Numbered from the stretch's first letter, positions 3,529 through 63,894 are shown. The stretch is 64,000 nt of DNA from Yuukianura sp. NJ FZ-2021 (GCA_046563655.1 CM102290.1:6882001-6946000); one strand, 5' to 3'. The notes: a model not told the origin generated them from the letters alone. A program made the numbers and translations.

Positions 3529-3868
3529 GGTTTCAGGTCATCTGCGCCTAAGCAAAGTGCGCCTCTCCAATATGCGCTAAAAAATGTGCGCCTCCATCCA
3601 AAGTGCGCCTCCAGCGAAAATGTGGCTTCAATCAATTAGCGCCTCCAGATCCAATCAGAAACCACCATTAACACTAACCAAACCTAACAGAAACCGTCGA
3701 GAAGAAATCAGTATGTATTGCGAAATTAAAAGCTTAACACCGCGCCGTCGGCGCGGGAAACTACAAACGCCTGGGGTGTGGATAACTACCTTTGTTTCAG
3801 AACTCCAACTTGTAATTGAATGAAACCTAAACCTATTTAATTGGAGCTGGAGCTGGAATGACCGGGGC
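3529..3868. mobile_element. Degenerate MITE (GGTTTCAGGTCA end, TGCGCC-repeat arm, central hairpin core)
   Basis: Left end resembles the GGTTCCAGGTCAAT ends of other elements in the window. It has repeated TGCGCC units and the hairpin CCGCGCC-GTC-GGCGCGG at 3740-3756. The right arm is decayed and there is no clean TSD. Confidence 0.45.
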
Positions 3869-3899
3869 GACTGGAACGCAGCGCAATGTTTTTTAGCTT

Positions 3900-5017
3900 T
3901 TACTTTTTCCTTCTGCTTGTAACAGTTGTCCATCCATCGGCGTCCACAACACCTCTGGTGGCTGCACTAGATTCTGCCTGGGTGACCCTGGATTCATGTT
4001 CCACAGGATCAATGTCCATTCCCTGAAACAAAGATTAATCAAAATGTAATTCATAAGCGTAAAGAATCAATTGCCTGGAAATGATAATGATTCCCGTTTC
4101 CAGTGAATATACATTTGCCAATCAGTAATCATACATGTACAAAGAAGTGTATGAACGGTAAGGGGTTATGTTTTAAAATTACCTCTTCCTCGGCACTTTC
4201 TTCTTCACTACTCTCATCGCCTTCGACTCGTGGAATAAGGTTCATCGTTGGATTAACTAAGCTCGATTTCTCAAGGATTTCTCTGAGTTTGGAAAAGTCT
4301 TGATCTTGGTACATTTTCCAATAAGATACTAACCGATTTCCTGCTTCGTCTAATGACCCATCTTCTATTCGCAGGTTAAAATTCAGATCCAGCGTTTCAC
4401 CAATCCATTCTCCCAATTCCTGACCACTGTCCAAATCTCCTGCATCCACAAAAGACAGAAAGGCATTAAAGCAACTTCCTTCGGGTTACATTTAATTTGA
4501 GTTTAGCCAACTGCATTCTATTCTGAATTACAAAAGCTGTCGTCTATAGGACGTTCATTCGGATTAAGCCATGATACAACCTTGTTGTAGGTTAACACAT
4601 CTGTACGCTAACAGAATGCAGCGGAATTTTGGAAATTATTTCGCAATGTTCATTAGTAAAGTGCTTTATCTTACTGTTTTCGTGGAAGCATTGCTCCGTA
4701 GCACCAACCATCAATTCGGTCATCCCATTAGACTGCTTGGCCATCGACGTCCCGATCTATGCGTCAATATCAAATCATACACTTTATCATATTTACTAAG
4801 CACTAAACCTGCATGTAACAGACTACATCGCTTTGCTATAACCAAGTAAATGCGATAGTACATTAACCGGCCGAGGCCGAGTATTATTAATTGTTCAAAT
4901 GGAATGGCTTACTTTAAATGCTTGCCAGTTTTCAAATACGTTACGGACGACAGCCGTGAATAGGTTGGCCGGTGCCATGGTTTGATACGATGGCGATGGA
5001 ACTGAAGATGCAGCCAT
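3900..5017 (-). CDS. TSR2: Pre-rRNA-processing protein TSR2 homolog (4 exons)
   Basis: Spliced translation MAASSVP...LFTAVVRNVFENWQAFK|IGTSMAKQ...|DLDSGQELGEWIGETLDLNFNLRIEDGSLDEAG...acidic tract...|...DADGWTTVTSRRKK*. The EDGSL and DGWTTV-RRKK motifs match TSR2. Introns are GT-AG and phase-consistent. Confidence 0.85.
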
Positions 5018-5084
5018 TCCGAAACCAATTCTTAATTAAAATTAAAAGAAAAGATCCAAAAATCCAAAGATCCAAAATGTGGGT

Positions 5085-15220: not shown

Positions 15221-16590
15221 ATGGACACTCTATCTTTAATTGGTCTTGGACTCATTTTAACGAATAAATTAAAAAGGAAAAAGCGACTAAAACCCAAATG
15301 TTGGGTAAAGAAGTGGATTAGACGTAGAAGTCAATTTGGTTGCGGATTACACTTGTTTCGTGAATTGTCAGAAGAGGAACCAAGTGACTTCCGGAATTGG
15401 CTTAGAATGGACAAGGTAAAATTTGATGAGCTGCTTGCATTAGTTGGACCCTCAATTCGAAAACAAGACACCAAGTTTCGAGAATCGATTTCGCCCGCGC
15501 AACGATTAGCACTTACCCTACGTTACCTTGCAACGGGTAAGATTCTATAAATCAGAAGGTTAGTGCAATGTTATAAACGCTTAAATTTTTTTTGAACAGG
15601 TGAAACACAAACATCCTTATCCTATGCCTTCAGAATTGCTCAACCGACCATCTCAAAGATAGTTTGTGAAACAACTTCAGCAATTGTTCTGGCTCTCAAG
15701 AATATCTATCTCGTACCTCCTAAAACTACTGCTGAATGGGAATCGGTGGCGGAGGGTTTTTGGGAATCTTGGCAATTTCCAAACTGTTTAGGGGCTGTAG
15801 ACGGAAAGCATGTGCGCATAGTTCCGCCAGCTGGTTCAGGGTCAGAATTCTACAACTACAAAAAGTTTTTCAGTATCGTTCTAATGGGCATTGTGGACAG
15901 CAAGTATAAGTTCCTTTACGTCGACGTGGGGACAAATGGAAGAGTAAGTGACGGCGGTGTTTGGGCTAAATGTGGAATAGCAAAGGCATTCGAAACTGGA
16001 GACGTCAAGGTACCTAAACCCGCAAAGCTCTCTCCAAATACGATTCCCACACCATATGTGCTGGTTGCTGATGACGCTTTTCCCCTGAAGCCATATTTGA
16101 TGAAGCCGTACCCTGGCCACTTTTTATCAAAGGAAGAAAGGATTTACAACTACCGGTAGAAGCTAGTATTAGCAGTGGTCAATTTAAAAATATGATATAC
16201 AATTATTTTTTAACTAGATTGAGTCGTGCCCGTCGTGTCGTAGAAAATGCGTTTGGCATTTTGTCGAACCGTTGGCGGTTCTTGCTGACCACCAATTTAC
16301 TGGCACCGGATCGTGTAGAGATGCAAGTACTAGCCGCATGCTGCTTACATAACTTCCTGATTCGCGACCATAAATCAAACTACATCAATGAAACGTTAGT
16401 GGACCGAGAAGATGAAAAGGGGAAAACGATACCAGGTGATTGGCGACGAGACTTTCCGGAAGGCTCTTACGAAAGGCCAGTCATGTGCAATGGCTTCAGA
16501 AGTTCAAGTAGTTCGAGAGAGATTCAACGAACATTCAAAAAATTTTTTTGTAACGAAGGCAGTGTTGATTGGCAAGAGGAAAACATTTAG
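15221..16590 (+). CDS. Harbinger DDE transposase (HARBI1-like), 3 exons, about 414 aa
   Basis: Exons 15221-15536, 15600-16155 and 16218-16590 join in frame without stops. Motifs LALTLRYLATG, GAVDGKH, YNYKKFFS, GRVSDGG, VADDAFPL and VVENAFG give an intact D-D-E triad. Confidence 0.95.
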
Positions 16591-16631
16591 TTAACGAAAT
16601 GTAACACTAGAAGTATGCCATATCTTATGAA

Positions 16632-17524
16632 TTAAGTACTATACTTTAAGTCAATAACTTGCTTCATAATATCTAGCTTGAACTTGTCCTTCCCTGCTGA
16701 TTCTGGAATTTGTTTCAAATACAGCAAAAGTTGGGCACAAAAGTGATCGTCACCAGTGTCGGATGATTTTTTTTTGATTGAATCCGAAATAGTTTCCATC
16801 AGCTCCATAGTCGCCTTCGCTTCATCTTGTTGTTGTTTTCTCTTCTTTCGTTCTTCAAGTGGCACACGATTATGCAGACTTTTGGAAGCCACAGGCGTTG
16901 AGAGACCGACTTTGGGACGTTGCGACTGAGCATCAGGCAATGCTTGCTCAACAGAGGTAGCATGGTCATTCGAAATTAGCCGAAATTCGGAATCCGCCAG
17001 GTCCACTTCGACAGAAGCTGAGGTGCTTCCAGATGCTTCAGGTTCGGACACTCCCAAAATCTCCTCAAACGTAAAAGGTTCTGAATCCAACGGCAATTCT
17101 GAATCAGTCGGTGATAGAGCCGACCAATTATCCTGGCTTTGGCGTTGCCGACATGAGTCAGTGAGGAATTCCAACGATTTATAAAACTGCCAACTTGGAA
17201 TGAAGACGTCTTCTGTACCATCTCCCGAATGTTCTACGTTAGCAAGCTTCTTTAATTTTAAATAGTATATTCTCATTTTTCGCCATTCTTCCTTTGCTTG
17301 TTTAGCTGTAGGAAAAAAAAGCGGGTTAATTACATTTTATAAATATTGTATAATCAATTGCGATTAGCAAAACTTTTACGTGTAATTGAGATTGTATTGG
17401 CCACTTGGATCCATCCCTCGTCAGTAGTGTTCCGCTTACTGTACTGCTCCGAAGCCGGATCCCAAAGATACTGCCTATCCCTCACTTCTTGTATCAAGAT
17501 GTGCTTTTGAGCAGTGGTCAACAT
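16632..17524 (-). CDS. Harbinger accessory Myb/SANT-like MADF protein with C-terminal BESS-like motif, 2 exons, about 272 aa
   Basis: Exon 17380-17524 gives MLTTAQKHILIQEVRDRQYLWDPASEQY...GWIQVA, and exon 16632-17305 continues ...EEWRKMRIYY...WQFYKSLEFL. The C-terminus is DDHFCAQLLLYLKQIP..KDKFKLDIMKQV. Confidence 0.88.

Positions 17525-26062: not shown

Positions 26063-26100
<38 letters not shown>
25430..26100. repeat. (TA)n/AT-only low-complexity tract interrupted by a MITE
   Basis: Almost pure A/T with TA dinucleotide runs on both sides of 25707-25929. Confidence 0.9.
25707..25929. mobile_element. TA-target MITE (Tc1/mariner-like), 223 bp
   Basis: TIR CCGTGTGCGCCAGCGAAAAGAGTACACCC / GGGTGTACTCTTTTCGCTGGCGCACACGG, flanked by TA. 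Confidence 0.9.
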
Positions 26101-26101
<1 letters not shown>

Positions 26102-27075: not shown

Positions 27076-27087
27076 CAACTAATTAGA

Positions 27088-38185: not shown

Positions 38186-38419
38186 GGGAGCACGCCATTG
38201 GTTCAAATGCGAATTGGTTCCAAAAAATAATTGGTTCTAAACACTAGTTGTTTAGGGTATAAGGCTTAAATTAGGTTAGGTTAGGTAAGTTTAGGGTTAG
38301 TTTACTTATTTTAGATTAGGTTAGGTTAGGTTTAGGTATCAAAATTAGGTTTTAGAAGCAATTATTTTTAGAACCAATTCGTATTTGAACCAATTCATTT
38401 GAACCAATGGCATGGAACC
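38186..38419. mobile_element. Palindromic MITE with AATTGGTTC arms and a (TTAGG)n centre
   Basis: Ends GGGAGCACGCCATT / AATGGCATGGAACC, near-TSD ATTTCATA/ATTTCACA, and central TTAGGTTAGG runs. Confidence 0.75.
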
Positions 38420-38468
38420 ATTTCACATTGAGTAATTTAGATCTTTATTTCAGAACTGAATACATCTT

Positions 38469-43169: not shown

Positions 43170-44784
43170 TGTGCTTAAATTCAAATCGGACTTAACTAAA
43201 AGATTTTTCCAAACAATTGATTATTTTGAAGCACTTGACTATGGATGCAGGAAAGACGAAGTTGTAACTGAAGCTTTCGATGAAGAACAAGAACACGAGC
43301 AACTGAAGGGCGGGGTTGAAAAATGTTTAGTTCGGCACTTAGAATTGCAATTGAAAAAACAATTAATAATGGTTAGGACGAACTGTCTACAGACATGGTA
43401 AAAGGGTGACAGGATCAGAATCAGTTATATGGTCAGTTTCTGCTGCATGTACTTGGAAGTCACATCACGTCCTGGAGTTCCAGTTCTCGTTCCGTGTTCA
43501 TTGTCATTGCTAATCCTAAAAATTTTGCACGAGGGTGGAAACTTCTTCGTTGTCCAATCTATGGACAGAATAATTTGAGGAACAGGACACATATTATTGA
43601 CGTACTTAAGCTTGGATCAACATTGCTCTACGGTGATGCTCTTGGAGGCAGTTGAAGTACGGCTTGGATACACATCAACCCTATCATCATCCCCCATCTT
43701 GTCAAAGCTACAATTGCCCCTAATTGCTGCTCCTCGAGCTAAGTAGGATTGATTAAGCAATTGACTCTGCAGTTTGTTCAAAAGATACTCCAAAGGTTGA
43801 AAATGCTTCTGCAAATATATTAACTTAATTCCTGGAGCCTCGTGTTCCAAAAAAATTTCTGGAAGTTTGACTTTACCCCACTATGCGTTCTGTTTTTTGT
43901 TAAACTAAAGAAGAACAATTGACCTAAACTAATCTTCTCATCCGTTATGTCGCTTCCTTAATCTAACTATGTAACTTTCAAGGTTTTCAACTAAACTATC
44001 GATTCTGCCACAGTAATTCACTATATAGATTTTTTTTTCAGTTTCTCCCCAGTGCTATAGTTTTTCCACAATTTCTAAAAATAGCTGTGCGCAAACAACA
44101 TGGAAAAATACTACAGCAGAGGCTCTCAAATTGCAACACGCTGTGATTGGTGGGTTTGATTCGGGCGTACGGTAAAGCTGTTCTCTACTGGGCCTCCGAG
44201 GCGAGATGTTGAACCAGCAAAATTGAAAAATTGATTAGCTTTTAGGTTTTGCTCTCGGCAATAACTTAGGTTTTTACGGTGTGCAAAGCACGGAGTTGCA
44301 GGAATTGCGACAATCCTGATGCCGTAACTATGGCTTGAGGTAGAACAAAATCATAAATACTACAAAACTCTTCTTTCCGAGTGCAAACGTTTGCGTAACT
44401 CAAAAAATTTCCCCTGCAAACAGCTTCAAATAGAACAATATCGCATTACACGCGCACATTATGTTAGGCAAATATCGGATTTTGCCACTATATTTACCAG
44501 AGTTACCTTTGTTGTGAAAATACATGGTAGTTACGATACAGTAGTTCAGTTACATAATACAATTATTATACAAGTGAAAAATTATTTTTTGAGCTAACTT
44601 TTCCAAATATTTTTTTAAATGCATTAGAAGATTTCAGGTAACATAAACCCACTTAAATACATAAATGAATAAAAAGTTAAGATTTGAAGTTATTTATGTA
44701 ATGGGATGCCCAATTGTGTCCATACTAGCGTGTGAACCGTGTGTAGTGTGGTATTTTGTCCAGGAATTTTCAAGGACATTTTGG

Positions 44785-45324
44785 GGTCGAAGTAAACTTG
44801 GGCCCCCCGCCTGTCCCCACCCGTTCAAATCTTCGCGCTGCTTCAATTGTCCCCACCCATTGTACCCACCTGGTGGGGACAAATGTCCCCACTTGGTGGG
44901 GGCAAATGTGTACCCACCAGCCCTACACCGAGTCCCCCTGGCGTCTGAAGTGGAACTAGTGGAACTTCGAGCTGGCAACGTTGTAGCATTTCTCCATTGT
45001 ACCCACCCAGGGCAGATTTAATCAACATAGCGAAACACAATAACTTATAACTTACAGACGTAATCAGTATTGCGTGCTTAACCAAACCTAACGCCGCGCC
45101 TTCGGCGCGGGAAAATATAACAGGATTAACCTAATCAAAAAGGGAAAAAAACGTTGCCAGCTTGAATTCAGAGGTTACTGTATTGCCGCTAGGTGGACGT
45201 GCCGCTTTTGATTGTGGTGGGGACAAATGCATCCATCCGGTGGGGACACTGGGTGGGTACAATGGGAGCAGCGCGAAAATTTGAACGGGTGGGGACAGGC
45301 GGGGGGCCCAAGTTTACTTCAACC
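44785..45324. mobile_element. Palindromic MITE with GGT..ACC termini and 8-bp TSD (Merlin-like)
   Basis: TIR GGT(C/T)GAAGTAAACTTGGGCCCCCCGCCTGTCCCCACCCGTTCAAAT, TSD CATTTTGG on both sides, central hairpin at 45094-45110. Confidence 0.9.
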
Positions 45325-45497
45325 CATTTTGGGTGCTAATTTGTGTATGCTGGCTTTTAATTGCGTAAGCTTTTTTGTAACTTTGATTAATTGCTTTTCC
45401 AATTCCAGGTTGTAAGTAGTCTGCGATTACGAGTTGAAGTTTTTCAGTTAATCTGAATTCAAATCCCCTTCACATTATTTTCTCACCAGTAGAAGAG

Positions 45498-48318
45498 ATG
45501 TCGGATTCGAAGCTAAGACGTAAGGAAAACTTATAATTCAGTCTAACATTATTCACGGCAAATCACCGCAACACTTGGTTGGAGAGTAGCAATGGGGTCC
45601 GTTTTTCTTTTAGTGTGAGTTAGGTTATCAAATCAGGACACAGTGCACCTTCAACACCTAACCTAACCTAACTCAGGGACTGTGCACTGTGTCCTGATTT
45701 GATAAACATAGCTCACACTAAAAGAAAAACGGACCCCTTTGCTACTCTCCAACCCAACACTTAACATTATTACATTGGGTATTACTGACTACGAATTACT
45801 AATTGGGCTGGTTGGCAAGATGTGACTTTCACTTTTTAAGTTTGTTTTCTTCCATTATGCTGGATGACCCGAACTTGTACTTGAACAATATATTCAGTAC
45901 GATAAATTACGTTCGTGTAGATTCAGTATGTATTATGTATTTGAAGTGTACTATCGTGTACTAGTACCGATTTTTCTCAAAAAATTTTTGTAGAGGCCAT
46001 ATGGACCCCTGATCACGAAAATACAATTTTTTTTGAGGGGTCTCAAAAAAAAAATATTTTTTCGAAATTTTGAAAAAAAAATTTCGAAATTTTTTCTTGT
46101 GTCCGATTTTGCTCAAAATGAGTTTTTAGACTAATTCATGTATGGCAAACACGAATATGAAAGAATTTTTGTCCTAGGATGTAAGACAAAAAAGTTAGCG
46201 GTGCTGATATGATTTGACTCAATAAAGGTTTTGTGTTTCCCGCGCCGAAGGCGCGGTGTTAGGTTTTTAAAAGTTCGCAAAGCTGATTTCGTCTCGAGGT
46301 TAGGTTTTCTAAAGTTCGCTATACTGACTCCGTCTCGAGGTTAGGTTTCTTAAAGTTAAGGTTGTATTTGCGTCATATTCCGTTCAATTTTTCTTCCACT
46401 AACTTTTTTGTCTTACATCCTAGGGCAAAAATACTTTCATATTCGTGTTTACCATACATTAATTACTCTAAAAAATCATTTTGAGCGAAATCGGACACAA
46501 AAAAAAATTTCGAATTTTTTTTTCAAAATTTCGAAAAAAATATTTTTTTTTTGAGACCCCTCAAAAAAAATTGTATTTTCGTGATCAGGGGTCCATAGAG
46601 TGTTCACAGAAAAAATATGAAAAAAATCGGTGCTAGTACACGATAGTAAAATTTTTCCCAGTTATGTATTTGAAGATAAATGTTTGCTTCGGTTTTTTTT
46701 AGATACCCATTCCCAAGATGATGGGTACAAGCTGGAACCGGTCAGTCCATCCGAAAAGGAGCATTTTCCGTTCTCTAGATGTAGTAGCACTGGGTCACTG
46801 AACACTCCGTCCTCCTCTGCTCATAACACTGGTGAGAACTGTTATAGGTTATAAATTTTAAGGCGATTTGAAAAGAAGTCAGCAGATCTTCAGCAAATTG
46901 ATGCTGGTGATTAATGACTTTTGAATTAATTGCGGAAATAACGTCATTTTTTAAGGCGTAGCTGAATGAGTTGGAAGTATATTTACCGTCAACAACCTGA
47001 AAGTGTTTCCCTACATTGATGGCCGGGCCATGGGTAACGTGAACTAGTTGGTTATTCGGTTTTAGTTCGGGGTTAAAATACAATTTGACACTCGGCAAAT
47101 TTTATTTCCAGCCAATCGTAGATATTTTATCATTAAGAGCGATTGTCAAAGCTTCATTCTTTCGTATTTGGTATTGCTAGTTTTACCATGTAGATACTAA
47201 ACTTATTTCATCTGTTCTTTCGTGATTTTCTAGATGACGAAGATTCTGACGGAGGAAAGTCGAGCATGAGTTACAAAGAACGAAGACGTGAGGCACATAC
47301 ACAAGCCGAACAGAAAAGAAGAGACGCAATCAAGAAGGGCTATGATTCGCTGCAGGATCTTGTTCCCATGTGTCAACAGAACGACTCTTTAAGTGGATAT
47401 AAGCTTAGCAAAGCCACAATTTTGCAAAAGTCAATCGATTACATCCAAGTAAGTACTGAAGAAGGTTTTTGGGCAGACAACCTTGAAGGTTACGCTGAAC
47501 ATCATCGCTTAAGTTTTTTTTGTTGCTTCCTTTATTAAATACAGTTGTTTTAGACCACACGTCTTATTTTGACAGTGTATTGCTGGGTTGTTGGGAGATT
47601 TTTTTTTACTGCTGATACGATTTTTAGGTTTCATTTGGTTTGCTTTTAGTATTTGCTGCAGCAGAAAAAGAAGCAAGAAGATGAACTTGCAGCCCTTCGA
47701 AAGGAAGTAGTCGCCCTTCAGATTATGAAAGTCAACTATGAGCAAATTGTAAAGGCACATCAAAGTCAACAACCAGGAAACGCCTCACTTCAAGTGTCAG
47801 ATGAAGTCAAGTTTCAAGTGGTAAGTGCTGATCTGTTTATCACCCCTACAACATCCGACGTTTAGCGTGACACACCACGATACTAGAAAATGGCGTAGTT
47901 GTTTATTAGATTCCGACGGGATTCTGTATCTTTACATTCTACAATAGACAGCTAATACATAATGTGATTAATTGATTATGACAAACGTGGGACAAATTGT
48001 ACTTGGCAACGAATTGGTAACTTGAAACACTAAAATCTTTCAACTGACATGTTTTAGTTCCAGGCGATAATGGATACATTGTTCGTTTCTTTCGACGCCG
48101 GATTGAGCGTATCTAATTTCACAGAGTTGTCGGCCGGCGTCTTCAGCTGGTTAGAAGAGCACTGTAAACCGCAGGTAATTTAACGCTTAACATAACAAAA
48201 CCTTATACAATTCATGTTTTTACTCCTTATTTTAACCAACGATATTTGTCACTTGCAGACTCTCCGTAACATGGTGATTTCAATTCTGCAGCAGTTGAAA
48301 AGTCAAATGGGAATTTGA
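45498..48318 (+). CDS. Mlx: Max-like protein X (Mlx/bigmax), bHLH-ZIP, multi-exon
   Basis: KLEPVSP, SYKERRREAHTQAEQKRRDAIKKGYDSLQDLVP, KLSKATILQKSIDYIQ, LRKEVVALQIMKVNYEQIV, VSDEVKFQVFQAIMDTLF, FSWLEEHCKPQTLR. Confidence 0.95.
45577..45754. mobile_element. 178-bp palindromic MITE with 8-bp TSD and a (CCTAA)n loop, in Mlx intron 1
   Basis: About 73-bp inverted arms starting GGTTGGAGAGTAGCAA, TSD CAACACTT, loop ACCTAACCTAACCTAAC. Confidence 0.92.
45951..46646. mobile_element. 696-bp palindromic MITE with TA TSD, in Mlx intron 1
   Basis: TA|CTATCGTGTACTAG...CTAGTACACGATAG|TA with about 245-bp inverted arms. The centre holds the CCGCGCC-GAA-GGCGCGG hairpin and repeated GTTAGGTTT. Confidence 0.9.
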
Positions 48319-49075
48319 TTGTTCCACTATTAGTACTAACTCCCCAAAGGTCAATAGACCGTGCTACAACTCCCTCGTCTCGAAACTGGAAAACTGAAAC
48401 GGAAATTAATACTATATACACTTTAGTTTTGTAATCGAAAAATAAATTAGTTTTGCAAAATCCTTATCTGTTACGGATCACTTTATCTGCCATACTAAAG
48501 CAAGAACTGGAAAAGTTAAGCTCGAATCGTTCTTGTTAGGAACGAAAATTGATGAATAATGTGACATGGTGAAAGTACGGATTCCAAAAATATCCAAAAG
48601 CAAATATTTCTTGCAATTTAAATTCAAACTCCATGTTAACTATAGCAGTCAAACATTCATTAGTTAATATTTTTTTACTTGTTTTTTGCTAAGTTTTGCT
48701 CGAGACAAAGGAGCGACGCTTGAATCAATGGTTGCCCTTGAATATAAAAAGTGGCGGATGAATTTAGATTCTAAACATCAGTGGTGTTCTAAACTCTAAC
48801 TATGTTGTGATTATTTTATACAATCATATTAATATTATGTTATATTACAATTACGTTAATATTACGTTACACAGTTTTATTGATATTATGTTGTAACAAC
48901 TATTCTTTAATTGAAGTGGGGAGTTATAGTATTAATGTACATTTTTTAATGAGGGATCTGCGGAAATCTTCGACAATGTTGAGAGCGTTCTTAACAAACA
49001 CCTACTACCCTAGTTTGGTACTTAAAAAATTGTTCCGGTGACCTTCATCAACCTTGTTACATGTCGTCAAGTCGT

Positions 49076-49360
49076 TTAAGACGGTGACCTTTCGATCGTA
49101 ATGGTGTCGAGGCGGGTGAGGTCACATGACGTATGCTGAGTGGTCGTACTGCGAAGATGATTATGCTGGGAGGACTTGGATCGTCCAAAGTCTGGGCAGC
49201 AGAGGCGTCGTAGGACGCATGCGTAGCACAGAAGCAGAATGAAGACGAGTCCTGTACCGAAGACGACAATTGCAATTAGGGCTGCTGTCACTGTTTGTTC
49301 TTGAGCTCGTGTGTCACCAAAGTTTGATGGCGGGGAGCCACCACCCCCTATTGACCCCAT
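49076..49360 (-). CDS. Small (94 aa) single-pass membrane protein with a juxtamembrane Cys cluster
   Basis: MGSIG...TAALIAIVVFGTGLVFILLLCYACVLRRLCC.. shows a hydrophobic helix followed by basic and Cys residues. The ORF is GC-richer than its flanks and has an AG acceptor about 45 nt upstream. Confidence 0.5.
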   Translation of the reverse strand: MGSIGGGGSPPSNFGDTRAQEQTVTAALIAIVVFGTGLVFILLLCYACVLRRLCCPDFGRSKSSQHNHLRSTTTQHTSCDLTRLDTITIERSPS

Positions 49361-50522
49361 GTCTCCACGCTATTTTGTTGTCACTTGATCCGCTCCAAAG
49401 ATTCTAATTAAATAAGCATATCTTTAGTTTGAAACAATATTATCAACGTATGTTTCCTTTTCCTTATTTTTGAATTTTTTCCATAAACTACTGGCTAGAC
49501 ATTTCCTAAATTCACAAGAAACTTTTAATTCAATGTAACAAATAGCAAATCTTTCTGTTGATTTGTCGTATGAATACGTAGCAAATAACGCATGTGAATT
49601 CTATACTTATTTGGTACAGATGGCGTAAACCGTGAACATTCCATGAATGCAAATTTAAAACGAAAAATGAAATCTCATGCTGTTTTACGCCTTGCCATAT
49701 CCTCTCTTCCAAACAATAGGAGATGACACAAGGACGACATGAAGAGACGTTGACTCCAAACTTTCTCTTTTGTCAAAATATGGAAATGTCTACCGAGAAA
49801 AGTTTTTGGGACAGATCCTTGTCAGTGTCACTGTGAGCCTTTTTTAGAAACTGATCAATAACTACTATATTCCACAAACAATGCATCATCATTTTTCCAG
49901 CGCCATCCAGCTTCACTTTCTCCCAGCATTCCCGCCCCCTAAACACGGAGAACTCATTTTGTCACCTCGTTAGTTTCAAAACTTGGAACTTGAAGCCCCT
50001 AGGGAGAGGAGCTTGTTCCAAGTCAACATATTATAATCTTCGTTAAAGAGTGTTATAAAAATTTATTATCAAAATTTTATTAAAATTTGACTGTTTTTCA
50101 TTTAATTTCTGTACGAAAATGTATTTGTTGGTTCCTAGTTTTTTAATAACTCCGCTTTGGGCTCCAGCGTTTGCCCCCAGGGGGTGGGGTATGACGGTCT
50201 TTATACCGGATTTCTTCTAGGTACAACTAGGTCATTAATTTCAGTTTAGAATTTTGCTTTGTAAGCTGTCTTTTTCCTAGGAGAAAATCTTTGTTATAGA
50301 AACAAAGGAACCTCAACGTCTTCGCCTTAGGAAATCTTCTAACTAATCATTTTTTCCCCTAAATTCGAATTTGAGGAATGCTAACAAAGGTGAATGATTA
50401 TAAAATTCGACTTCGGTAAAAAGTTCAATTCGTCTTTCGTCTACTCGAGCTATGCAGTAATCCCTTTCAGTTGCATTTTCTTTTCGATTCGTTCAATTCT
50501 GCACCTTCTTCAGAGCTACCTA

Positions 50523-51000
50523 CGAAGCACGGCAATACATCAAAAAAAAGACATCAACTGAAGAGACATCAACCAGAAAGACATCAACAATGCAAACACA
50601 TCAACTATAAAAACACATCAACCCAAAAGACATCAACACAAAAGACATCAACAATGCAAACACATCAACAATGAAAAGACATCAACGTGTGGCTAGCTTA
50701 GCCTGCGGTACCGCGCCGAAGGCGCGGCGTTAGGTTTGGTAAAGCACACCATAGGGATTACGTCTGTAGGTTGGATTGTCTAAGTCTGGCTTATTACATT
50801 TTCAAAATTTCAAAAAAAAATCCTTATTTCTTTTCTGTTGATGTCTTTTGTTTTGATGTCTTTTCATTGTTGATGTGTTTGCATTGTTGATGTCTTTTGG
50901 GTTGATGTGTTTTTATAGTTGATGTGTTTGCGTTGTTGATGTCTTTTGTGTTGATGTCTTTTCAGTTGATGTCTTTTTTTTTATGTATTGGCATGGACCC
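50523..51000. mobile_element. Foldback MITE with GACATCAAC-repeat arms, asymmetric ends and 8-bp TSD (MULE-like)
   Basis: TSD GCTACCTA on both sides, ends CGAAGCACGGCAAT / ATTGGCATGGACCC, central hairpin at 50711-50727. Confidence 0.9.
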
Positions 51001-54000
51001 GCTACCTATGCAGTAACTGGGAACTCTTTGAGAAATTGAAACAAAAATTATGATGGTCCCTTACACTTTCTGTCCATAACTTTCATAACTGACGACAGTT
51101 TCTTTTAAGCAAAGCGGCCTATAATATAAGCAACAAAAATCTAAGCATGACAAAACCTAAAAGCATTATTTTATAGTGAACGATAATTTGGTTAATTGGG
51201 TTGATAGTTTTGGGCTTTAACGTTGTGTTAGGTTTGATTAGAATAATTTGAATCCTTACATAATTTAACCTGCTTAAATTTTGGTTTGGATATATTTTTG
51301 TTGTTTGGATTATGACATGGACTCCTTTGAAGCCAAGTTTTGGTGATTTGAGAGAGTAAAAGTGCCGCAAAGTGTGGAAGTCTTGTGAAAAGTTTCAGTG
51401 AAATACTTCACGGGTGCTAAAGTGAGTCGTTTGAAGTGGCTATGAACAACACCAGCAGGAATCATCCCTGGATACAGAGGCGCTTGCGCCCGCCTTCTTT
51501 GAATTAACCTATGGCGACATTAAGCAAATGAGGGCGCGGCACCCCGTTACACGTTTGTTTAGTTTTTGGAACATAAAATACCTGGAATTGCAAAGCTGAC
51601 TAATTACTTTTCACCATTTTTTATGTCTTCTCCACCCACTATGTTTCAAATCAGTTGCGTAGCTTGTACTAAAATGATTAAGATTGAACCGATTTCGACG
51701 TACTTTGGATTTAGGTGTTTAGAAAGCGTTTTTGAAGAGTCAAAAGTCATGAAATTCTCTCAATTTTACTTGACCTCCTGTGTTTTTGGAAAGTTCAATT
51801 TTGAATTTGAAAGTAAAAGCTTTCTCCAACAACCTTTTTTATTTACTTCGGAATAGATTGACAGAGAGCATTCTTGGATTGTTGAATATTTGTTTCTTAA
51901 AAAAAAAGAGAAGGAATTCAGGATACGGTAACTTTTGTGTAATAAACCTAAAATATTGTTGAAAACCTAAAGAATTTTCATAGGATTCATATAACGTATA
52001 GTCAAATATAGCCATGTTCACCTCAATTCTTATGCATTTTTTTGCTAACAAGTGAGTACACAAAAACAAAACTGTTTTCGATGGAATTTCATAAATTTTC
52101 AGACATCAAATCGGAACAATAAGCGCAGCAAAGAAACAATTCTACTCTGCCAAGAAAATAAAATTGATTTTGTTTTGTCTTGAATTGAAAATCTTTGATC
52201 GAAGTACTTTTAAATAAGGCAAGGGATCCTTATTTCCGTTGCTTTCTAACGTTAAATTGAAACTGACTTTTCACAGTCAAAGTGAGCAAACAAATTCCAA
52301 TTTCGAAAACTTTTGGATACGTTGGACCAAACAAAAAAGTAAAGAGCTGTAAAACCTTGAGCCGTTCAAGAAAGGATATTCGCACAAAAATTCATATTAT
52401 CAGACAAAGAATGCAATCCTCAATTACTAGATTACTTTACTATGTATTAAATTCGTAATTCTATTTCCACATAATTACATTTGTTTTGCAATTCTACAAG
52501 GTGTTAGCAACCTGTTCCGAGAATTTTATATTGATTTCTGACTAGCTCTCCCTTATTGTTTACACTGTTCCTATTTTTAGCATTCATTTAATCAGAACCT
52601 ATTGACTTTTGGCTTATGGTGTTTAAGTTCTATTATTTTGTGCAGTAGTGTTTGTTCCCAAGTTTCTCCACCCGGTGGTTACAGATTTTTTTTGTGTCGG
52701 ACATCATCTTAATTTGCGAAACGTAGTTTCGTTAGGACGTAAACTTTAGAGTTTGATTAATATTTACTACCAGCACACATCCTGAATCTGTCTTTACTTT
52801 GGTACATTGTTTCAAAGGCTTTGGGTTATACATTGATTCCAGGGAATACCCCTTAGGCATTTCCTGGAATATTAAACTTCCTAAATTTCCAGACGTTTGC
52901 GAAACGGATCGTCTTTTCTTTTTTGGCTTTTAGCACTATCGCTTCACAAACAACAAAGTGGAATTCTTAAAACGTCACAGGAAGTCCTTTCTCGGGAATT
53001 CGAACAACTACTTCTTATGATTTCCCAAAATGAAAAATGGGAAGTAAGTTCTAAGTGAAGCATTACAAATTTCCTCGGGGTGACTCACGGATATTCTTTT
53101 CAGGACTTTCACTAGCAATGATTTTGAGCACCTTCTGGCGAACTATTTTTCCGTTTCCCGAAAGAGTAATATTTTAGATTGTGTTGGATTTTGTTCAGTA
53201 ATTTTACAATTTTTATAATTTTTGACTAGTTTCAAAAGGCTAAGTTTTCTCCCTAATTTTTCTATATAATATGGACTAAGTACTAGCTATTGGGTAAGTT
53301 TGAGAAAAATCCTTCGTAGCGTTTGTCATTGAAAACTGTTCAAACTTTTACTTCTGATATGTTTTGTTTTGCGTGTTATTGGTATAGTGTGTATGTGTGG
53401 GAGTTATAGGGTGGCAGAAATAGCGTCTGGCCTTGGGCTTTTCTTGCTATTTGTTGTATTTTTTCCTCCTTTACACATACAGTATCATAAGAGGGTCGGT
53501 TAGGAATAAGAAGTGTGAAGAGATAGGGTTTTCCAATTATTAATTAAAAATCAGGTTAAGATCATCTTGAAATGATCAATTGGTTCAATTTGTAAAAATA
53601 AACATTCAATTTTCTTAAATTCACACGTCAGAGAGTAAAAGTCAAGTTATTTAAAGTAGTTTTCCACGGTCCTAAAGAAGGAGCATTAGACCGGGTAGGT
53701 TTGTGCTCCTACGAAGTGTCGGAATTCCTACAGTATTCTACAGATTGCTTTAAAGACGCTAGTAATGAATTCGAAAGAATTGAAAAAAGAATACATATGA
53801 CGTTGGTTTTTGGTATTACAAAGAATTTATTATAACTCAAAATAAGAGAAATATTGTAAAACCGGTAGGAAGCACACCAAAGAAGAATTGATTCTAAAAA
53901 CTTTGTTTCTAATCAGCCCCCTGCAAATGGCGCCCATAGCAACCAACGCAATTTTTTGTTTGTGACGTCACCAGCTGAAAAATACCGTAATCGTGAATTT

Positions 54001-54334
54001 GGAACCCGCTGGCATTTATGTAAACAAGATGTGTCTTACGGGTTTCTATAGGACACCACCAATAATTGGCAGAATTCCGGTATTTTCAGCGGGTGACGTA
54101 ATTTTTTTTTCCACATGGCAACCAAACAAACTTTCCATTCGCACTACCTAGTAGTATTCTATTTACCTTGGTTTCTAATGTGTTCATAGGATAGGTTTTT
54201 TAGAATCAATTTTTAAAAACTTTTTCGTTAGAAGGAATTCACTCGAAACAATGTCATGGGACCACACGGTAATCATTGGTTTTAACTAAACAAAACGCTG
54301 ACGTTACTAAATAAACCGTTGTAACCGCCGTATC

Positions 54335-54573
54335 CAAGGCAACTAAACAAAATGACACACCGCATTATATACCTAATTATTATAAATTATTATAATAATT
54401 ATATTATAATTATAATATTATAATAATATTATATATATATTAATATATATATTATATTATATATACATTATATATTATATATATTATTAATAATTATAAT
54501 TATAATAATATAATAGGTTTATATTATTATAAACCTATAGTAATACGGTGTGTCTTTTTGTTTAGTTGCCTTG
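54335..54573. mobile_element. MITE with CAAGG termini and 8-bp TSD (P-element/hAT-like) and an AT-only interior
   Basis: TIR CAAGGCAACTAAACAAAA(T/A)GACACACCG; TSD GCCGTATC at 54327-54334 and 54574-54581. Confidence 0.88.
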
Positions 54574-55483
54574 GCCGTATCCAACTAGCGAAATGTACGC
54601 GAACGTTTGCAGGGGTGACATTTATTCAATTGAAGCACCAGCTCAAATCACCAGCATAAAAGTTGTTTGGCTCAATGAAATGGACACCAGTTGTAGAGAT
54701 AATGGATTCAGTTTTCGTTAAAATAGTTCACTTTGACCTTTGAAAAAGAAGCATTGCACTTCCGGTCAAAGCGGCAGCGAATTAGAAAAACGGCGTGGCG
54801 AGTTTAGTATTAATTTTTTTTTAAATTCGTTGGCGTAGGTTCCGAATATGAAACCTTTTTGGTGGTCACCCCTTCTTCTTTGTAATATTGGGTGTATTAA
54901 GATTGTGATTAACAATGTGAATTTCTATTGTGTGACCAATAGATAATAATAAGAATGGTGGGCTACTTATGTCTCCGCGCTCTCTTCATGAAAACGAATT
55001 TCATGCAAAAAAAAATCGGAATTTTTTTTCGAATCGGAATCGGAAACGGAAAACAGTGGAAAGTGGGGTATCCGAGGGTAAATTCTTCCTCAGCACCATC
55101 GCTTAATCAACAAAAACTTCTTTTTCACAAAAGTACCCCTCGAGAGTAGATTTCTTCAGAGAGTAGCACGTTTCCGGTTTGTTCGCAAGAACCGCCAAAT
55201 GTTTCATGCAACAACATAGCGGACAATATGAAACCATTTTATTAACCAATCAGTTATTTGTGGTTTCGGTTCCTGGGATTGACAAGAACCAGAAACGTGT
55301 CGGTTCTCGGTTCCTCCCGTTGAAGGGAACTGAACCGGAACCTTCATGCCGGTTCGGTTCATTAAAGGGAACCTATCCGAGAACCGAACGGGGAACCGCG
55401 GTTCCGGAACCCTTGGGCACAGAGAACCTTGAAACTCTAGTCGCTAGTCATAGGCAGCAGATTCAATTTATTTTTAAAACTAA

Positions 55484-60434: not shown

Positions 60435-61878
60435 GGGTGCAACCCAGTTGCAAATGAATTGGTTCAAAACAAATTGGTTCAAGAGTCCAATTGGTTCAAG
60501 ACGCAAATTGATTCAAAAACAAAGGAACCCAAATGGGAACACACCATTGGTTCAAATGAATTGGTTCAAATGAAAAGGTTCGAAACAAATTTGTTCAAGA
60601 GTCCAATTGGTTCAAGACGCAAATTGATTCAAAAACAAAGGAACCCAAATGGGAACACACCATTGGTTCAAATGAATTGGTTCAAATGAAAAGGTTCGAA
60701 ACAAATTGGTTCAAGAGTACAATTGCTTCAAGATGCAAATTGATTCAAACACAACACAGCGCAGCTTAAAAAACACGACAGTACCCTGACCGTACCCACC
60801 AATTGTACTCAGGATGTAGTACATTTGTACCTATAACAATCCAAAGCAACATGTCCACGTCCATCTGTAGTAATGAAATAAGCTCGAGGTTCAAATTAGG
60901 TAGCACCCCGTTACTCGTGGATTTAGTATAAATCCAAATCCTGTTTTATTTTCCCACGCCGAAGGGGCGGTGTTACGTTTTTAAATTTGTAATAAACCGG
61001 TTGTAAACCGCCCATACTGATAATAGCGAAGCATTAGGGCCCCCCGAAGGGGGTTTGTTCCCCCCACTTTCCCGCCTCCCCCCCCCGGGAGGAGTGGGGC
61101 TGTTTTCCCCGCTTTCCCGCCCCCCCCCCCGGGGAGTAGGGGTGTGTTCCCTCCACTTTCCCGCCCCGCCGGGAGAGTGTGGGTATGTTCCCCCCACTTC
61201 CTCACCCCCATGGGGTGTCGCAGTGATTTCAAAGCAAGGCGTGGAGAGGTGGAATCCGGATGAAGCAACAACAGAACGAATGAATAGCCGACTCTGGAGT
61301 CTGGACGCGTGTATATGTCAACTGCGTAATAGATTTTTTGCTAAGCAGAGAATCAAGTCCCATGCCAATTGCCTTTCCAGTCTCACAAGCAGAGTTTTTT
61401 GTACCCACACTTGCATTACAAATGACCTTTAAAATCGATTTTGACCCGGAAGCAGGTGACCTAGGGTCACACATTACATACAAAAGTTGTTCCCCTCGAT
61501 GAGATGAATAACTTTTGTAGAGGTCATTTTCTGGGTTACCAGGGATGAAAGCGGTTGACCTTGACCTTTGACCCGGAAGGAGTTGCCCCACGGGGGTCAT
61601 ATTCAATAGTGAATAGGTCCGGGTCATGAGATGGTCACTGGTGAAAACCCGGTTGAAATTGGTCCAATAGTTCCGGAGCAAATCGTTCTAATGTTTTCCG
61701 GGACAGACAGACGGACGGACGGACGGACAGACAAACCTCTTTTATCATAATAGCTTCGCTATTATAATAATGATTATATGCTAGGTTAGGTAATTTCTTG
61801 AACTTGTTTTTTAAGTTGGTTAGCTTTTGAACAAAGAACCAATTGGTTTTGAACCATTTGAACCAATGGCATGGAACC
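60435..61878. mobile_element. AATTGGTTC-arm foldback MITE with internal ~115-bp duplications, interrupted by a HINE
   Basis: Same arm repeat and AATGGCATGGAACC end as the 38186 element; degenerate core hairpin at 60954-60970. The left boundary and TSD are uncertain. Confidence 0.65.
60991..61768 (-). mobile_element. DINE-1/HINE-like element
   Basis: Palindrome ATAATAGC-TTC-GCTATTAT, subterminal copy ATAATAGCGAAGC, 3' stem-loop matching the 41028 copy (GCGGTTTACAACCGGTTTATT), (GTCC)n microsatellite and a G/C-rich block. Confidence 0.78.
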
Positions 61879-62767
61879 CTGCAAATTACCTTGTCTTACT
61901 ATATCGAACTATTTTTCTCAACACGGTACATAGTGCCAATATTTGGCATTCGGAAATTAGTTGATCGAAATCTATAACAGTGAAGAATAGAAAATCTTGA
62001 TGTTAGGTTTTCCATAACTTTACCTTTGTATACATTTACCAAACTATTATTTTCCAAACTGTATAAGTCCGTTTACGGTAAACGGACTTAGTTTAAGGTA
62101 AAACTTTTACCTTAGAGGGTAACAAATAACAAAATGGAGGATTTTGACATGCTTTTGAAATCCGACCCACTCTAATTACTTCCATTGTGCTAACTTTGAC
62201 TATAAAAAATATCAAATAATTGTGTCACAGACATACAATGAGCTGGAATTTTCTCGCAAAAAGAAGTTTTGGACTTAATGGGAAAACAAAACCCAAATTC
62301 AACTGTATTCCCAGATCCGTGTTGAGATAGAAATGTTTACACGTTGGAGAAATCTTTCTCCAACATCCCTTTACCTCTTTTCTGGCTAAAAATAAAGTTT
62401 CAATTGAAAGGATAACAACTCATAAGCTTGTCTCTTGCAATCAAGAACTGCAATTTTGTCACAAATTGTAATAAAGTATACATTACGTTACAAAGTATAT
62501 TTTTTATGAGAACTCAAAAAAAGCCATGCTGGTAAAAAAAACAGAATCACACAAAGAAGGAACTTTGACTTCTTTTCCAAATAAGAAATTCTTCGAAAGG
62601 GATGAATTTTGGATCGGGAAAAGAAAGCTGCATTATTTTTGGTTGTCGATGTTTTAGAATCCTGATCCTGGATTTCATGTTTTATAAGACTTCATATGAT
62701 TTTGAAATTCAAATGGCAAATCCTATTATGTTCAATACACTAACCCACACATACACTATTCGTCCAA

Positions 62768-63894
62768 CGATGCTGGTCAATTCGTAAGCTCAATTTCGTA
62801 AGCAGTCAGTTCGTAAACATCCCAATTCGTAAGCCGCCATCTCGTAAGCAGCCCAATTCCTAAGCAGTCAATTCGTAAGCATGAACAATTCGTAAGCACG
62901 GCAATTCGTAAGCATTTCAATTCGTAAGCAACCCAATTCGTAAGCAAAAGCAATTCATAAACAGCAAATTCGTAAGCACAGCAAATTCGTAAGCAAGCCA
63001 ATTCGTAAGCAGCAAAAATCCTAAGAATCTATTTGCCAATTCCTTGTGTTATGTTGGTTAAAGTAAACTTTGGTCCGTCGCCTGTCCCCACCCGTTTAAA
63101 TTTTCTCGCTGCTTACATTGTACCCACCCATTGTCCCCACTGAATGGATACATTTGTCCCACCACAACCAAAAGCAGTACATCCACCTAGCGGCAATACA
63201 GTAACCTCTGAATTCAAGCCGGCAACGTTTTTTCCTTTTTGATTTGGGAAATCCTGTTGTATTTTCCCGCGCCGAAGGCGCGGCGTTAGGTTTGGTAAAG
63301 CATGCAATACTGATTATGTCTGTAGTTTAACTTATTGAGTTTCACTATGTTGATTGCATCTGCCCTTAGGTTACCACGGCGGGTGGGTACAGATTTATCC
63401 CCACCAAGTGGGTACATTTGTCTCCACCCGGTGGGTACAATGGAAGCAGCGCAAAAATTTGAACGGGTGGGGACAGGCGGCGGACCAAGGTTTACTTCGA
63501 CCGTTATGTTGGCTGAATTTTGCAATTGTATCTAACATTTTCAATTCATTGCATCCAAAGTTTTGACAATGAAAAAACACAAATAATAATAATAATATAT
63601 ATTAACAATAATAATTATTAATTATAAATTACGAATCTCAAAGATTGGCTGCTTACGAAAATGAATGCTTACGAATTCACCATGCCTATCAATTTGATGC
63701 TTACGAATTTGGGTGTTTACGAACTGGCTCTGTTTACGAATTTTCCAAGCTTATGAATTAGGATGCTTACGAATTGGGCTGCTTAGGAATTGGGTTGCTT
63801 AGGAATTGGGCTGCTTACGAATTGGGTTGCTTACGAATTGACTGCTTACGAATTGACTGCTTACGAAATTGAGCTTATGTATTGACCTGGAACC
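62768..63894. mobile_element. Foldback MITE with TTCGTAAGC-repeat arms, asymmetric ends and 9-bp TSD (MULE-like)
   Basis: TSD TTCGTCCAA at 62759-62767 and 63895-63903; ends CGATGCTGGTCAAT / ATTGACCTGGAACC. Confidence 0.9.
63056..63502. mobile_element. Merlin-like palindromic MITE (same family as 44785) nested in the 62768 element
   Basis: TSD GTTATGTT, ends GGTTAAAGTAAAC / GTTTACTTCGACC, central hairpin at 63267-63283 in the opposite orientation to the 44785 copy. Confidence 0.9.

Follow-up and report, generated by a model that had tools for sequence, protein, structure and literature searches.

In the 64-kb window (the whole stretch of DNA that was analysed), one short cassette, a GAA-triloop hairpin followed by tandem units that begin with TTAGG, recurs in the loops of elements whose arms are largely unrelated. 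We read the cassette as loop DNA that passes among foldback-type MITEs by recombination, by template switching or by insertion of one element within another, and that only the spacer tolerates, a tentative reading to which we give a probability of roughly 0.45. The cassette has a defined anatomy and sharp edges of homology, is abundant, and is found with varied flanks, mosaic joins, loop-less relatives and loop nesting.

The hairpin CCGCGCC-GAA-GGCGCGG with its GTTAGGTTT...GCAATACTGATT...GTCT tail stands at six loci, against 0.02 expected by chance in the whole 64 kb. A search with the 15-mer CGCGCCGAAGGCGCG at up to 2 mismatches placed it at 3741 (-), 45095 (-), 46241 (+), 50712 (+), 60955 (+) and 63268 (+); the palindromic 3741 site was counted on both strands, giving 7 rows for the six loci, a number reached in 0 of 100 shuffles. 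A profile built from the six copies returned the same loci plus the second tandem unit of copy B, and no further copy in the 64-kb window (next matches at E >2). All six places named by the sequence-only reading were therefore recovered, and none elsewhere in the 64 kb. The copies are as follows.

45005..45117, minus strand: cassette A, with hairpin at 45094-45110, leader, a first unit and a degenerate second one, tail subtype 1 (profile match 45047-45117, E 2e-22)
63261..63372, plus strand: cassette A', with hairpin at 63267-63283, then unit 1 and a second unit that is degenerate, and a tail of subtype 1 (profile E 3.6e-22)
46235..46357, plus strand: cassette B, with hairpin at 46240-46256 and then 2.5 tandem 41-bp units (46258-46316 aligns with 46299-46357), tail subtype 2
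50708..50815, plus strand: cassette C, with hairpin at 50711-50727, unit 1, a degenerate unit 2 and its own upstream leader, tail subtype 1
60948..61027, plus strand: cassette D, with a decayed hairpin (two stem mismatches) and a subtype-2 tail, split at 61028 by a 719-bp insertion and continuing from 61747
3665..3763, minus strand: cassette E, with a hairpin whose loop is GAC and a subtype-2 tail

The cassette consists of a T-rich leader (GTTnTnTTTCC), the hairpin with its 7-bp stem, and about two tandem units of ~41 bp, each starting with TTAGG. A core of up to about 60 bp had been described earlier; that core is present, but the leader and the tandem units make the cassette longer.

The carriers are real, abundant cut-and-paste elements, mostly of two groups with 8-9-bp target duplications. 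They are given below with three related elements of the window.

44785..45324, minus strand: host A, a group I MITE with inverted ends GGTYGAAGTAAAC, 109-bp arms of GTCCCCACC-type motifs and the 8-bp duplication CATTTTGG
63056..63502, plus strand: host A', of the family of A (89% identity), with the 8-bp duplication GTTATGTT
45951..46646, plus strand: host B, with ~255-bp AT-rich arms that are 88-90% complementary and a 194-bp loop
50523..51000, plus strand: host C, a group II foldback-like element with asymmetric outer ends, the 8-bp duplication GCTACCTA and arms of ~16-bp tandem repeats with GACATCAAC
60435..61878, plus strand: outer host of D, a group II element with asymmetric ends and AATTGGTTCAA-repeat arms (60447-60754 and 61836-61878), a kind also found in the MITE at 38186-38419
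3529..3900, minus strand: remnant of host E, with putative boundaries, GGAGGCGC repeats of 17-bp period confined to one side (3541-3648) and an end ...GATGACC similar to group II 3' ends
38186..38419, plus strand: group II MITE that lacks the hairpin and has a TTAGG-like array as its loop, with 10 TTAGG on the plus strand
45577..45754, plus strand: group I MITE with ends GGTTGGAG...CTCCAACC, the 8-bp duplication CAACACTT and the centre (CCTAA)3
62768..63894, plus strand: group II foldback-like element with CAATTCGTAAGC-repeat arms and the 9-bp duplication TTCGTCCAA, carrying A' in its loop

Hosts A, A', D, C and E fall into the two groups, and 8-9-bp duplications and ...ACC-3' ends are found in both. 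The shape of C and of the elements at 62768, 38186 and 60435 is that of foldback transposons, with long inverted arms of short tandem repeats around a loop, and duplications of 7-9 bp were found (GCTACCTA, 8 bp; TTCGTCCAA, 9 bp; ATTTCATA/ATTTCACA, 7/8). Host B has TA at the ends of its inverted repeats, yet positions 45935 and 46664 carry the direct repeat ATGTATTTGAAG of 12 bp, and the duplication type of B is ambiguous (TA or 12-bp repeat). Of the three end types that had been proposed, the 8-bp duplications of A and A' are confirmed and C also has 8 bp, but the TA of B does not stand as a clear type. The further proposal of a superfamily-independent module is weakened accordingly, since B, with its ambiguous TA, is the only exception to the two groups. 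The sole transposase remnant in the window is of PIF/Harbinger type.

Loop nesting was observed directly, in that A' lies within the loop of the element at 62768-63894 and the centre of 60435-61878 holds an A-like fragment with the cassette; both observations support exchange. The same centre also contains the 719-bp insertion, which sits at the hairpin tip ATAATAGC-TTC-GCTATTAT.

Comparison of the copies showed where homology begins and ends. Cassettes A and C are 90% identical over 62 bp with abrupt edges, on par with the 89% between A and A'. A and B share 68 bp, A' and B 110 bp, and B and E 78 bp at 82% identity. Identity of the cassette between hosts is thus 82-90%, while their arms and flanks cannot be aligned; when compared with A, the sequence upstream of the cassette in C, B and E scores 9-11, which is shuffle level (mean 10.1). 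The homology between D and A reaches ~100 bp further upstream (score 35 vs a shuffle maximum of 17), with 45/50 positions identical from leader to first unit and ~70% identity in the flank. Because A, A' and D share this wider homology and B, C and E share the cassette only, the six copies represent four independent contexts. The claim of six carriers with unrelated arms consequently holds for B, C and E, but the core of D lies in an A-like fragment and A' belongs to the A family. That a discrete module is common to elements with unrelated arms is supported by the sharp edges of homology. Shared length around the hairpin varies by pair from 62 to about 280 bp, a spread more easily reconciled with exchange endpoints that vary than with a single mobile unit of fixed extent. 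Tail subtype is independent of host, D having subtype 2 despite its A-like flank, an observation that supports exchange. No exchange event with both parents was caught among the six copies readable in full and the contig joints listed. A four-gamete test on combinations of upstream leader and tail gave no violation, and transfer is strictly required by C alone.

These comparisons also bear on descent within one superfamily, in which the cassette would be the ancestral loop of elements with 8-9-bp duplications, ...ACC-3' ends and fast-turnover arms of subterminal repeats. Four group II elements do have common termini (5' nGnnGCnnG..CAAT; 3' ATGGCATGGAACC or similar) with different ~16-bp arm repeats, and in C, E and the outer host of D the cassette has the same orientation relative to the asymmetric ends (3/3), so that plain descent would fit these three as well. 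The group II MITE at 38186 has its TTAGG tracts on the same strand, and D and A hold the cassette at the same relative place though their flanks are only ~70% identical. We nevertheless regard descent as unlikely: the abrupt identity of A and C, next to sequence that is unalignable, is too recent and too sharp for an old common origin, and C and E, both of group II, have only 22 bp in common. Host B, with its different ends and AT-rich arms, and the group I and II elements of the window that lack the hairpin (38186, 45577 and 62768) also argue against descent.

Contigs from four public runs, which represent at most two samples (three runs being one sample), extended the analysis. At least 26 contigs (X1) and at least 18 (X2) depart from host A at 45324 into differing flanks. 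Contigs likewise run out of the cassette into flanks that differ, at 46235/46236 (at least 8, at least 13 and at least 12 contigs; consensus agreement 0.58-0.69), at 50772/50770 (at least 11 and at least 3) and at 45049 (at least 7). Mosaic joints listed were A-C, from 45047 to 50769; A-B, from 45074 to 46243; and B-C, from 46539/46540 to 50685/50692. Relatives without the core had been called for and do exist for types B and C, both assembled at high depth; however, the whole loop is gone or replaced, and neither is a clean empty site. The C-type contig passes from 50669 to 50825 with 18 other letters between, and the B-type contig from 46177 to 46401. Another contig runs from 50503 to 51005 without element C and retains 11 nt rather than the 8 of an unoccupied site, which we read as an excision footprint. 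In summed contig depth, which is not a copy number and for which three of the four runs are one sample, the central bin exceeded either arm bin in 10 of 12 element-by-run comparisons, the exceptions being A and B in X2. As a counterpoint to exchange, deeper central bins could also mean that the cassette spreads by itself.

All six copies lie in the spacer between inverted arms, and spacers make up ~3% of the window. The central position noted earlier is thereby confirmed, but it is partly forced, because whatever stands between two arms is central by definition. Among 131 TTAGG/CCTAA pentamers, 28 fall in 1,970 bp of loops, delimited after being seen, vs 4.0 expected by length share. The motif TTAGGTTAGG, at up to 1 mismatch, has 18 matches vs 3.98 expected, 12 of them in loops by coordinates. 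The report of TTAGG/CCTAA in the centres of other MITEs is borne out, with enrichment that includes loops lacking the hairpin.

Another reading is a tiny element in its own right that inserts in palindrome centres or hairpin tips and is targeted by structure. Bacterial IS1397 targets REP loops. The confinement of the six copies to so small a part of the window agrees with an element of this kind, as do the central bins (depth again not being copy number) and the fact that elements with 8-bp duplications do enter loops and hairpin tips here (A' and the 719-bp insertion). Even so, we judge it quite unlikely. The cassette has no terminal inverted repeats, its shared length is not constant, and loop-less relatives lose the entire loop rather than the cassette alone. 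Duplications around the core were sought at the copies and none was consistent: 7/8 direct repeats seen by eye beside A, B and C stand at differing distances, with an estimated ~0.3 per element by chance. A bolder proposal, which we consider decidedly doubtful, is a 'loop parasite', a structure-seeking unit of an ultra-stable single-strand mini-hairpin with TTAGG-seeded repeats, which would colonise the broken or extruded tips of long palindromes, or be copied there, across transposon superfamilies. Templated repair (snap-back or template switch) or telomerase-type addition at loop breaks could then be the driver, and fragile perfect palindromes would become stable, amplifiable MITEs. The simplest products would then be seen at 45577, a 178-bp MITE with a pure (TTAGG)3 centre, and in the TTAGG array of the MITE at 38186.

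The hairpin itself raises the possibility of function. Stems are identical in four of the six copies, and the CCGAAGG heptamer, in which a C:G pair on a GC stem closes a GNA triloop, is present in five of six, with a predicted DNA fold of -9.6 to -10.7 kcal/mol in 5/6 copies. A selected cis-module, in which a factor of the host or the transposase recognises the hairpin or the TTAGG units, or in which these act in single-stranded form as a signal for priming or pausing, and which so raises MITE amplification, would be compatible with any of the proposed histories. Candidate factors would be a telomere-repeat protein or E2F, whose binding is putative; TTTCCCGC presumably fits the E2F consensus. 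The roles proposed earlier, which include telomere-protein binding, a nicking or priming signal and relief of palindrome toxicity, are putative. Plant MITEs are reported to have amplified E2F motifs (PMC5950925). The C-GAA-G mini-hairpin recognised earlier corresponds in its predicted fold (~-10 kcal/mol) to the mini-hairpin DNAs GCGNAGC/CCGAAGG of Hirao and co-workers, with a GAA loop closed by C:G; the excerpted account describes GNA triloops as unusually stable and CCGAAGG as assisting primase recognition at ssiA (PMC13037366). Natural examples in that excerpt are phage and plasmid single-strand origins and promoters, and it describes no role in eukaryotic transposons (PMC13037366). Retention of the D cassette at 45/50 beside its more diverged flank, and the TTAGG enrichment of hairpin-less loops, would also suit a selected module. 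Compensatory stem changes, in contrast, were sought among the six copies and none was found: the D mismatches are uncompensated, and E has a GAC loop that is not of the GNA type. Tail structure was no better than shuffles (z -0.7 to -2.2), and the B and C relatives lacking the loop reach high assembled depth. We therefore hold selection on the module to be improbable.

A rolling-circle end (Helitron, Helentron/HINE or DINE-1-like) inside MITEs was also considered. HINEs combine subterminal repeats that are palindromic with tandem repeats in the centre and runs of T (Thomas et al. 2014, PMC4067079), and the cassette recalls this anatomy in its short GC palindrome, its central tandem array of ~41-bp units (B has 2.5 copies, and A, A' and C about 2 each) and its T-rich edge; this leader has no terminus or empty site for comparison with a TT insertion. 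Unlike HINEs, the cassette has neither paired subterminal repeats nor a terminal position, and its carriers own inverted ends and target duplications. The paired 12-15-bp subterminal inverted repeats of HINEs, placed 2-4 nt inside the 5' end and 38-60 bp before the 3' end, were looked for and rejected, as each element has one palindrome and no second subterminal copy (15-mer, up to 2 mismatches). A canonical Helitron 3' end (a 16-20-nt palindrome ~11 bp before CTRR) was likewise rejected. Homology continues past the hairpin for 45-95 bp one way and ~12 nt the other, with no CTRR at either edge (the ~12-nt edge on the reverse strand reads GAAAnnAnAAAC), and the core is distinct from such an end. 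Cassette edges are fuzzy and internal to duplication-flanked elements, with no constant terminus (A/T insertion and 5' TC check). No Rep/helicase ORF was found in the 10 of 18 ORFs of at least 150 aa that were scanned, the remaining eight lying in satellite-like arrays at 24.2-24.9 and 28.3-29.5 kb. A rolling-circle origin is thus very improbable.

Exchange of loop DNA has its nearest precedents, by analogy, in coral CMITEs and Galileo chimeras. Among the CMITEs of Acropora, six families that differ in their inverted ends all keep a 75-bp internal region of unknown origin, for which a part in transposition has only been suggested (Wang et al. 2010, PMC2872659). The likeness lies in several MITE families with different terminal inverted repeats and an internal region better conserved between families than the ends, as was found here. 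CMITEs, however, are ~100 bp, TTAA-flanked and piggyBac-linked (PMC2872659), whereas the present hosts are foldback-shaped, 180-1,100 bp long and flanked by 8-9-bp (possibly TA) duplications, and their shared part is a hairpin with tandem units in the loop, with sharp edges. Assignment to piggyBac-type CMITEs (TTAA duplication, CCYT termini) failed, duplications being 8-9 bp (A, A', C, 62768 and 45577) or TA/ambiguous (B). The Galileo and Foldback transposons of Drosophila resemble the hosts in long tandem-repeat arms, 7-9-bp duplications and chimeric centres (PMC3573991; Tetris, PMC4079207). Some Galileo copies have the arms of one subfamily and the centre of another, for which ectopic recombination or conversion is invoked; the subfamilies involved belong to a single element, and the relationship of their arms is recognisable (PMC3573991). 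In contrast, the arms of A, B, C and E cannot be aligned, and the present hosts are not known to have a transposase partner.

We infer both the mechanism of loop exchange and the reason for central retention. The cassette occupies the non-palindromic spacer of very abundant, recently active, foldback-shaped non-autonomous DNA transposons; it probably has no mobility of its own and would travel with the transposing host. Transfer may occur when one element nests in the loop of another and is then trimmed, by ectopic recombination or gene conversion in the loop, or by template switching while an excision gap is repaired, and the shared hairpin and units could supply the homology. Insertions in the arms would presumably break the palindrome, and a long palindrome may need an asymmetric spacer for stability.

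The origin of new MITE families, and the amplification of some to thousands of copies, are still poorly understood. With one defined cassette present in the loops of several unrelated foldback elements, DNA exchange between transposon families can be followed by a concrete marker, and there is a candidate, open to test, for a spacer through which long palindromes become tolerable. The TTAGG tracts in palindrome centres also hint that loop breakage is linked to the addition of telomere-type repeats. If the cassette is merely a passenger, the locus is still a clear case of mosaic MITE evolution.

The cassette, a T-rich leader with a GAA-triloop hairpin and approximately 41-bp units starting TTAGG, is a genuine and distinct module carried in the spacers of abundant MITEs with a foldback shape. 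A search with the 15-mer CGCGCCGAAGGCGCG (up to two mismatches) matched the 64-kb window at 3741 (-), 45095 (-), 46241 (+), 50712 (+), 60955 (+) and 63268 (+), against a chance expectation of 0.02 and a number unmatched by any shuffle. These are exactly the six sites at which a sequence-only reading had placed its core. A profile of the six copies recovered all of them at E-values of 1e-16 to 2e-22 together with one extra tandem unit in copy B, and the 64 kb held no further match below an E-value of about 3. The copies read at full length are these six, all inside the window, and they and their host elements are referred to as A, A', B, C, D and E (hairpins at 45094, 63267, 46240, 50711, 60954 and 3740, respectively). 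Alignment of the copies gave the following parts:

Part 1: T-rich leader GTTnTnTTTCC, that of C differing
Part 2: CCGCGCC-GAA-GGCGCGG, a stem of 7 bp capped by a three-base loop
Part 3: approximately 41-bp unit, GTTAGGTTT..AAAG..GCAATACTGATTnCGTCTnnAG
Part 4: second unit, more degenerate

Since all four parts are common to the copies, the module measures approximately 105-120 bp rather than the core of up to about 60 bp initially proposed. Copy B holds 2.5 tandem copies of the unit (46258-46357). Scans for the core returned no matches in viral contigs and none for either of two patterns in metagenome contigs. Literature searches covering chimeric MITEs and MITEs that carry TTAGG or other interstitial telomeric repeats yielded no account of the cassette.

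Host classes were assigned from termini and target duplications, and three kinds of host were distinguished (group I, group II and B):

Group I: inverted ends GGTYGRAG..., nearly perfect, with duplications of 8 bp in the termini check
44785-45324: A, group I, 8-bp duplication CATTTTGG
63056-63502: A', group I, 8-bp duplication GTTATGTT
45577-45754: 178-bp MITE, group I, 8-bp duplication CAACACTT
50523-51000: C, group II, duplication GCTACCTA
62768-63894: 1.1-kb foldback-like element, group II, arms of CAATTCGTAAGC repeats, 9-bp duplication TTCGTCCAA, A' inserted in its loop
38186-38419: group II, duplication matching at 7 of 8 positions
60435-61878: group II, outer host of the D fragment
E: one-armed remnant, surviving end resembling group II
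45951-46646: B, AT-rich arms of approximately 255 bp, inverted ends flanked by TA
61028-61746 (locus 61020-61754): 719-bp GC-rich element inserted at the D locus rather than a host, 8-bp duplication ATAATAGC, approximately 75% identity to 41395-41753

Group II elements have the look of foldback transposons, with arms of approximately 16-bp tandem repeats that differ from family to family, conserved 3' ends (...ATGGCATGGAACC or similar), 5' ends unlike the 3' ends, and duplications of 8-9 bp. Three end types had been claimed for the carriers. The 8-bp duplications of A and A' and the asymmetric ends of C bear out two of these, but E is one-armed and the TA duplication of B is ambiguous because a perfect 12-bp direct repeat, ATGTATTTGAAG, also flanks B (45935-45946 and 46664-46675, 2 and 15 bp outside the inverted ends). 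Two explanations present themselves for the pair: a repeat that already existed at the target, or a target duplication of unusual length that comes with an asymmetric 3' extension. The D cassette lies inside a fragment homologous to family A (identity of about 70% over approximately 100 bp upstream; alignment score 35, where shuffled sequences averaged 10.1 and reached at most 17). Therefore, D is no independent host type, and the six copies reduce to A/A'/D, B, C and E, four contexts independent of one another. This fragment lies centrally in group II element 60435-61878 and was later split by the 719-bp insertion with its 8-bp duplication. The 719-bp element occupies the apex of a second, small hairpin, ATAATAGC-TTC-GCTATTAT (GCGAAGC on the opposite strand), and its own sequence opens with a further hairpin of the GAA-triloop kind (61041-61053, CCCCC-GAA-GGGGG). 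The D locus and the position of A' in the loop of 62768-63894 suggest that elements with 8-bp duplications tend toward landing in palindrome loops.

Between unrelated hosts, homology is limited to the cassette and its edges are sharp. A and C share 62 bp at 90%, matching the 89% whole-element identity of A and A'; A and B have 68 bp in common, A' and B 110 bp, B and E 78 bp at 82%, and C and E the hairpin only. Upstream of the cassette, the flanks of C, B and E resemble that of A no better than shuffled sequence does. One tail subtype occurs in A, A' and C and the other in B, E and D despite the A-like flank of D, indicating that the subtype is not host-bound. Strictly, a transfer is needed for C alone, and a tree could accommodate the remaining combinations. 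Descent within a single superfamily making 8-9-bp duplications, with arms turning over fast, is considered unlikely.

Contigs of four public runs, representing at most two samples, were compared with 44700-51100 at 80% likeness. The A, B and C elements are very abundant, their bins in run X1 reaching depths of 8,570-69,551 against approximately 193 in unique stretches, where depth is no copy number. When each element was compared in each run, central-bin depth exceeded the depth of either arm bin in 10 of 12 cases; A and B in run X2 were the exceptions. Contigs leave the cassette for differing flanks at 46235/46236 (at least 8, 13 and 12), 50772/50770 (at least 11 and 3) and 45049 (at least 7), and the joints listed include A-C, A-B and B-C mosaics. 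At the A boundary, 45324, at least 26 and 18 contigs exit. Copies lacking the core do exist among relatives of B (at least one contig skipping 46177 to 46401) and of C (at least one skipping 50669 to 50825, with 18 other letters between), but the whole loop is gone and no clean empty site is left. A self-mobile mini-element targeted by structure would account for the central position of the cassette. Target duplications sought around it by eye amounted to imperfect 7-of-8 repeats, inconsistently placed, which were treated as chance, and such an element appears quite unlikely. One X1 contig (depth 159.5 against approximately 193 for unique sequence) links 50503 to 51005 with 20 other letters between, an allele without the 478-bp C. 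At the junction 11 nt are retained, compared with 8 expected for an unoccupied site. This resembles an excision footprint, so element C may still be active or have been so until recently.

Both the heptamer CCGAAGG and the GAA loop with its C:G closing pair fit the mini-hairpin DNA described in PMC13037366, a review that also places CCGAAGG at the ssiA priming site. The hairpin alone is predicted to fold convincingly as single-stranded DNA (approximately -10 kcal/mol), while whole cassette pieces are predicted to fold little better than shuffles (z -0.7 to -2.2). Stems are identical in four copies, the loop of E is GAC, and the stem of D has two uncompensated mismatches. Compensatory changes, a suggested sign of selection, were absent among the six copies, so that covariation gives nothing in favour of a selected structure. 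A selected cis-module, a reading compatible with the others, is distinctly improbable. Rfam gave no matches across the window at gathering thresholds and only one 13.7-bit chance match in 63150-63420 at E-values up to 10, and a tRNA scan found none. A general excess of GAA/TTC triloop hairpins was rejected, as six of the eight in the window with stems of at least 5 bp are the four intact cassettes and two more at the D locus. That the arms arose from the hairpin by snap-back was likewise rejected, given that approximately 38 bp and 140 bp of non-palindromic sequence separate arms from hairpin in B. Paired subterminal repeats and a CTRR terminus, features of HINE and Helitron ends as set out in PMC4067079, were looked for and not found. 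Derivation from a Helitron or HINE end is extremely improbable.

TTAGG, the ancestral arthropod telomere repeat according to the abstract of PMC5528210, is concentrated in the loops. TTAGG/CCTAA pentamers numbered 28 of the window's 131 in 1,970 bp of loops against 4.0 expected by length share, these loops being delimited post hoc. TTAGGTTAGG with up to one mismatch gave 18 matches against 3.98 expected, 12 of them in loops. The central presence of TTAGG in other MITEs was confirmed at 45577, where (CCTAA)3 is essentially the whole centre, and at 38186, which has an approximately 100-bp TTAGG-like array. Relative to the asymmetric ends, the strand carrying TTAGG is oriented alike in all four elements of group II.

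Elsewhere in the window (G+C approximately 39%), a PIF/Harbinger-type transposase remnant (15596-17336; DDE_Tnp_4, E 2.4e-17, in two frames) adjoins a weak MADF-like ORF on the opposite strand. An approximately 42-bp-register tandem repeat forms two large inverted arrays, 24273-24887 and 28255-29359, approximately 3.4 kb apart, a satellite-like pair with identity up to 89% over 616 bp. Extremely AT-rich self-complementary arrays surround short unique cores (25430-25706, 25930-26100 and 54334-54574), and 25707-25929 has GC-rich inverted ends CCGTGTGCGCCAGCGAAAAGAGTACACCC; these are possibly another foldback family. An exon-like ORF at 36887-37348 with PAS_11/PAS_3 domains (E 2.7e-13; NPAS4, SIM or HIF type) marks the sequence as metazoan and no more narrowly, its look-alikes being arthropod or chordate, and places the MITE cluster in or near a bHLH-PAS gene.

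The reading we consider most probable, at roughly 0.45, is that the cassette is a passenger passed between families by exchange. A' and the D fragment show nesting in loops directly, the points around the hairpin at which homology stops are variable, mosaics joining two families are frequent, and the loop-less relatives have lost the whole loop rather than leaving a clean empty site. Published parallels are coral CMITEs, whose internal region is conserved (PMC2872659), and copies of Galileo that carry a foreign centre (PMC3573991). The families would swap loop DNA, with the cassette going along. Foreign DNA would be tolerated in the loop alone, since elsewhere it would break the palindrome, and the central position of the cassette would then be partly a survivorship effect.
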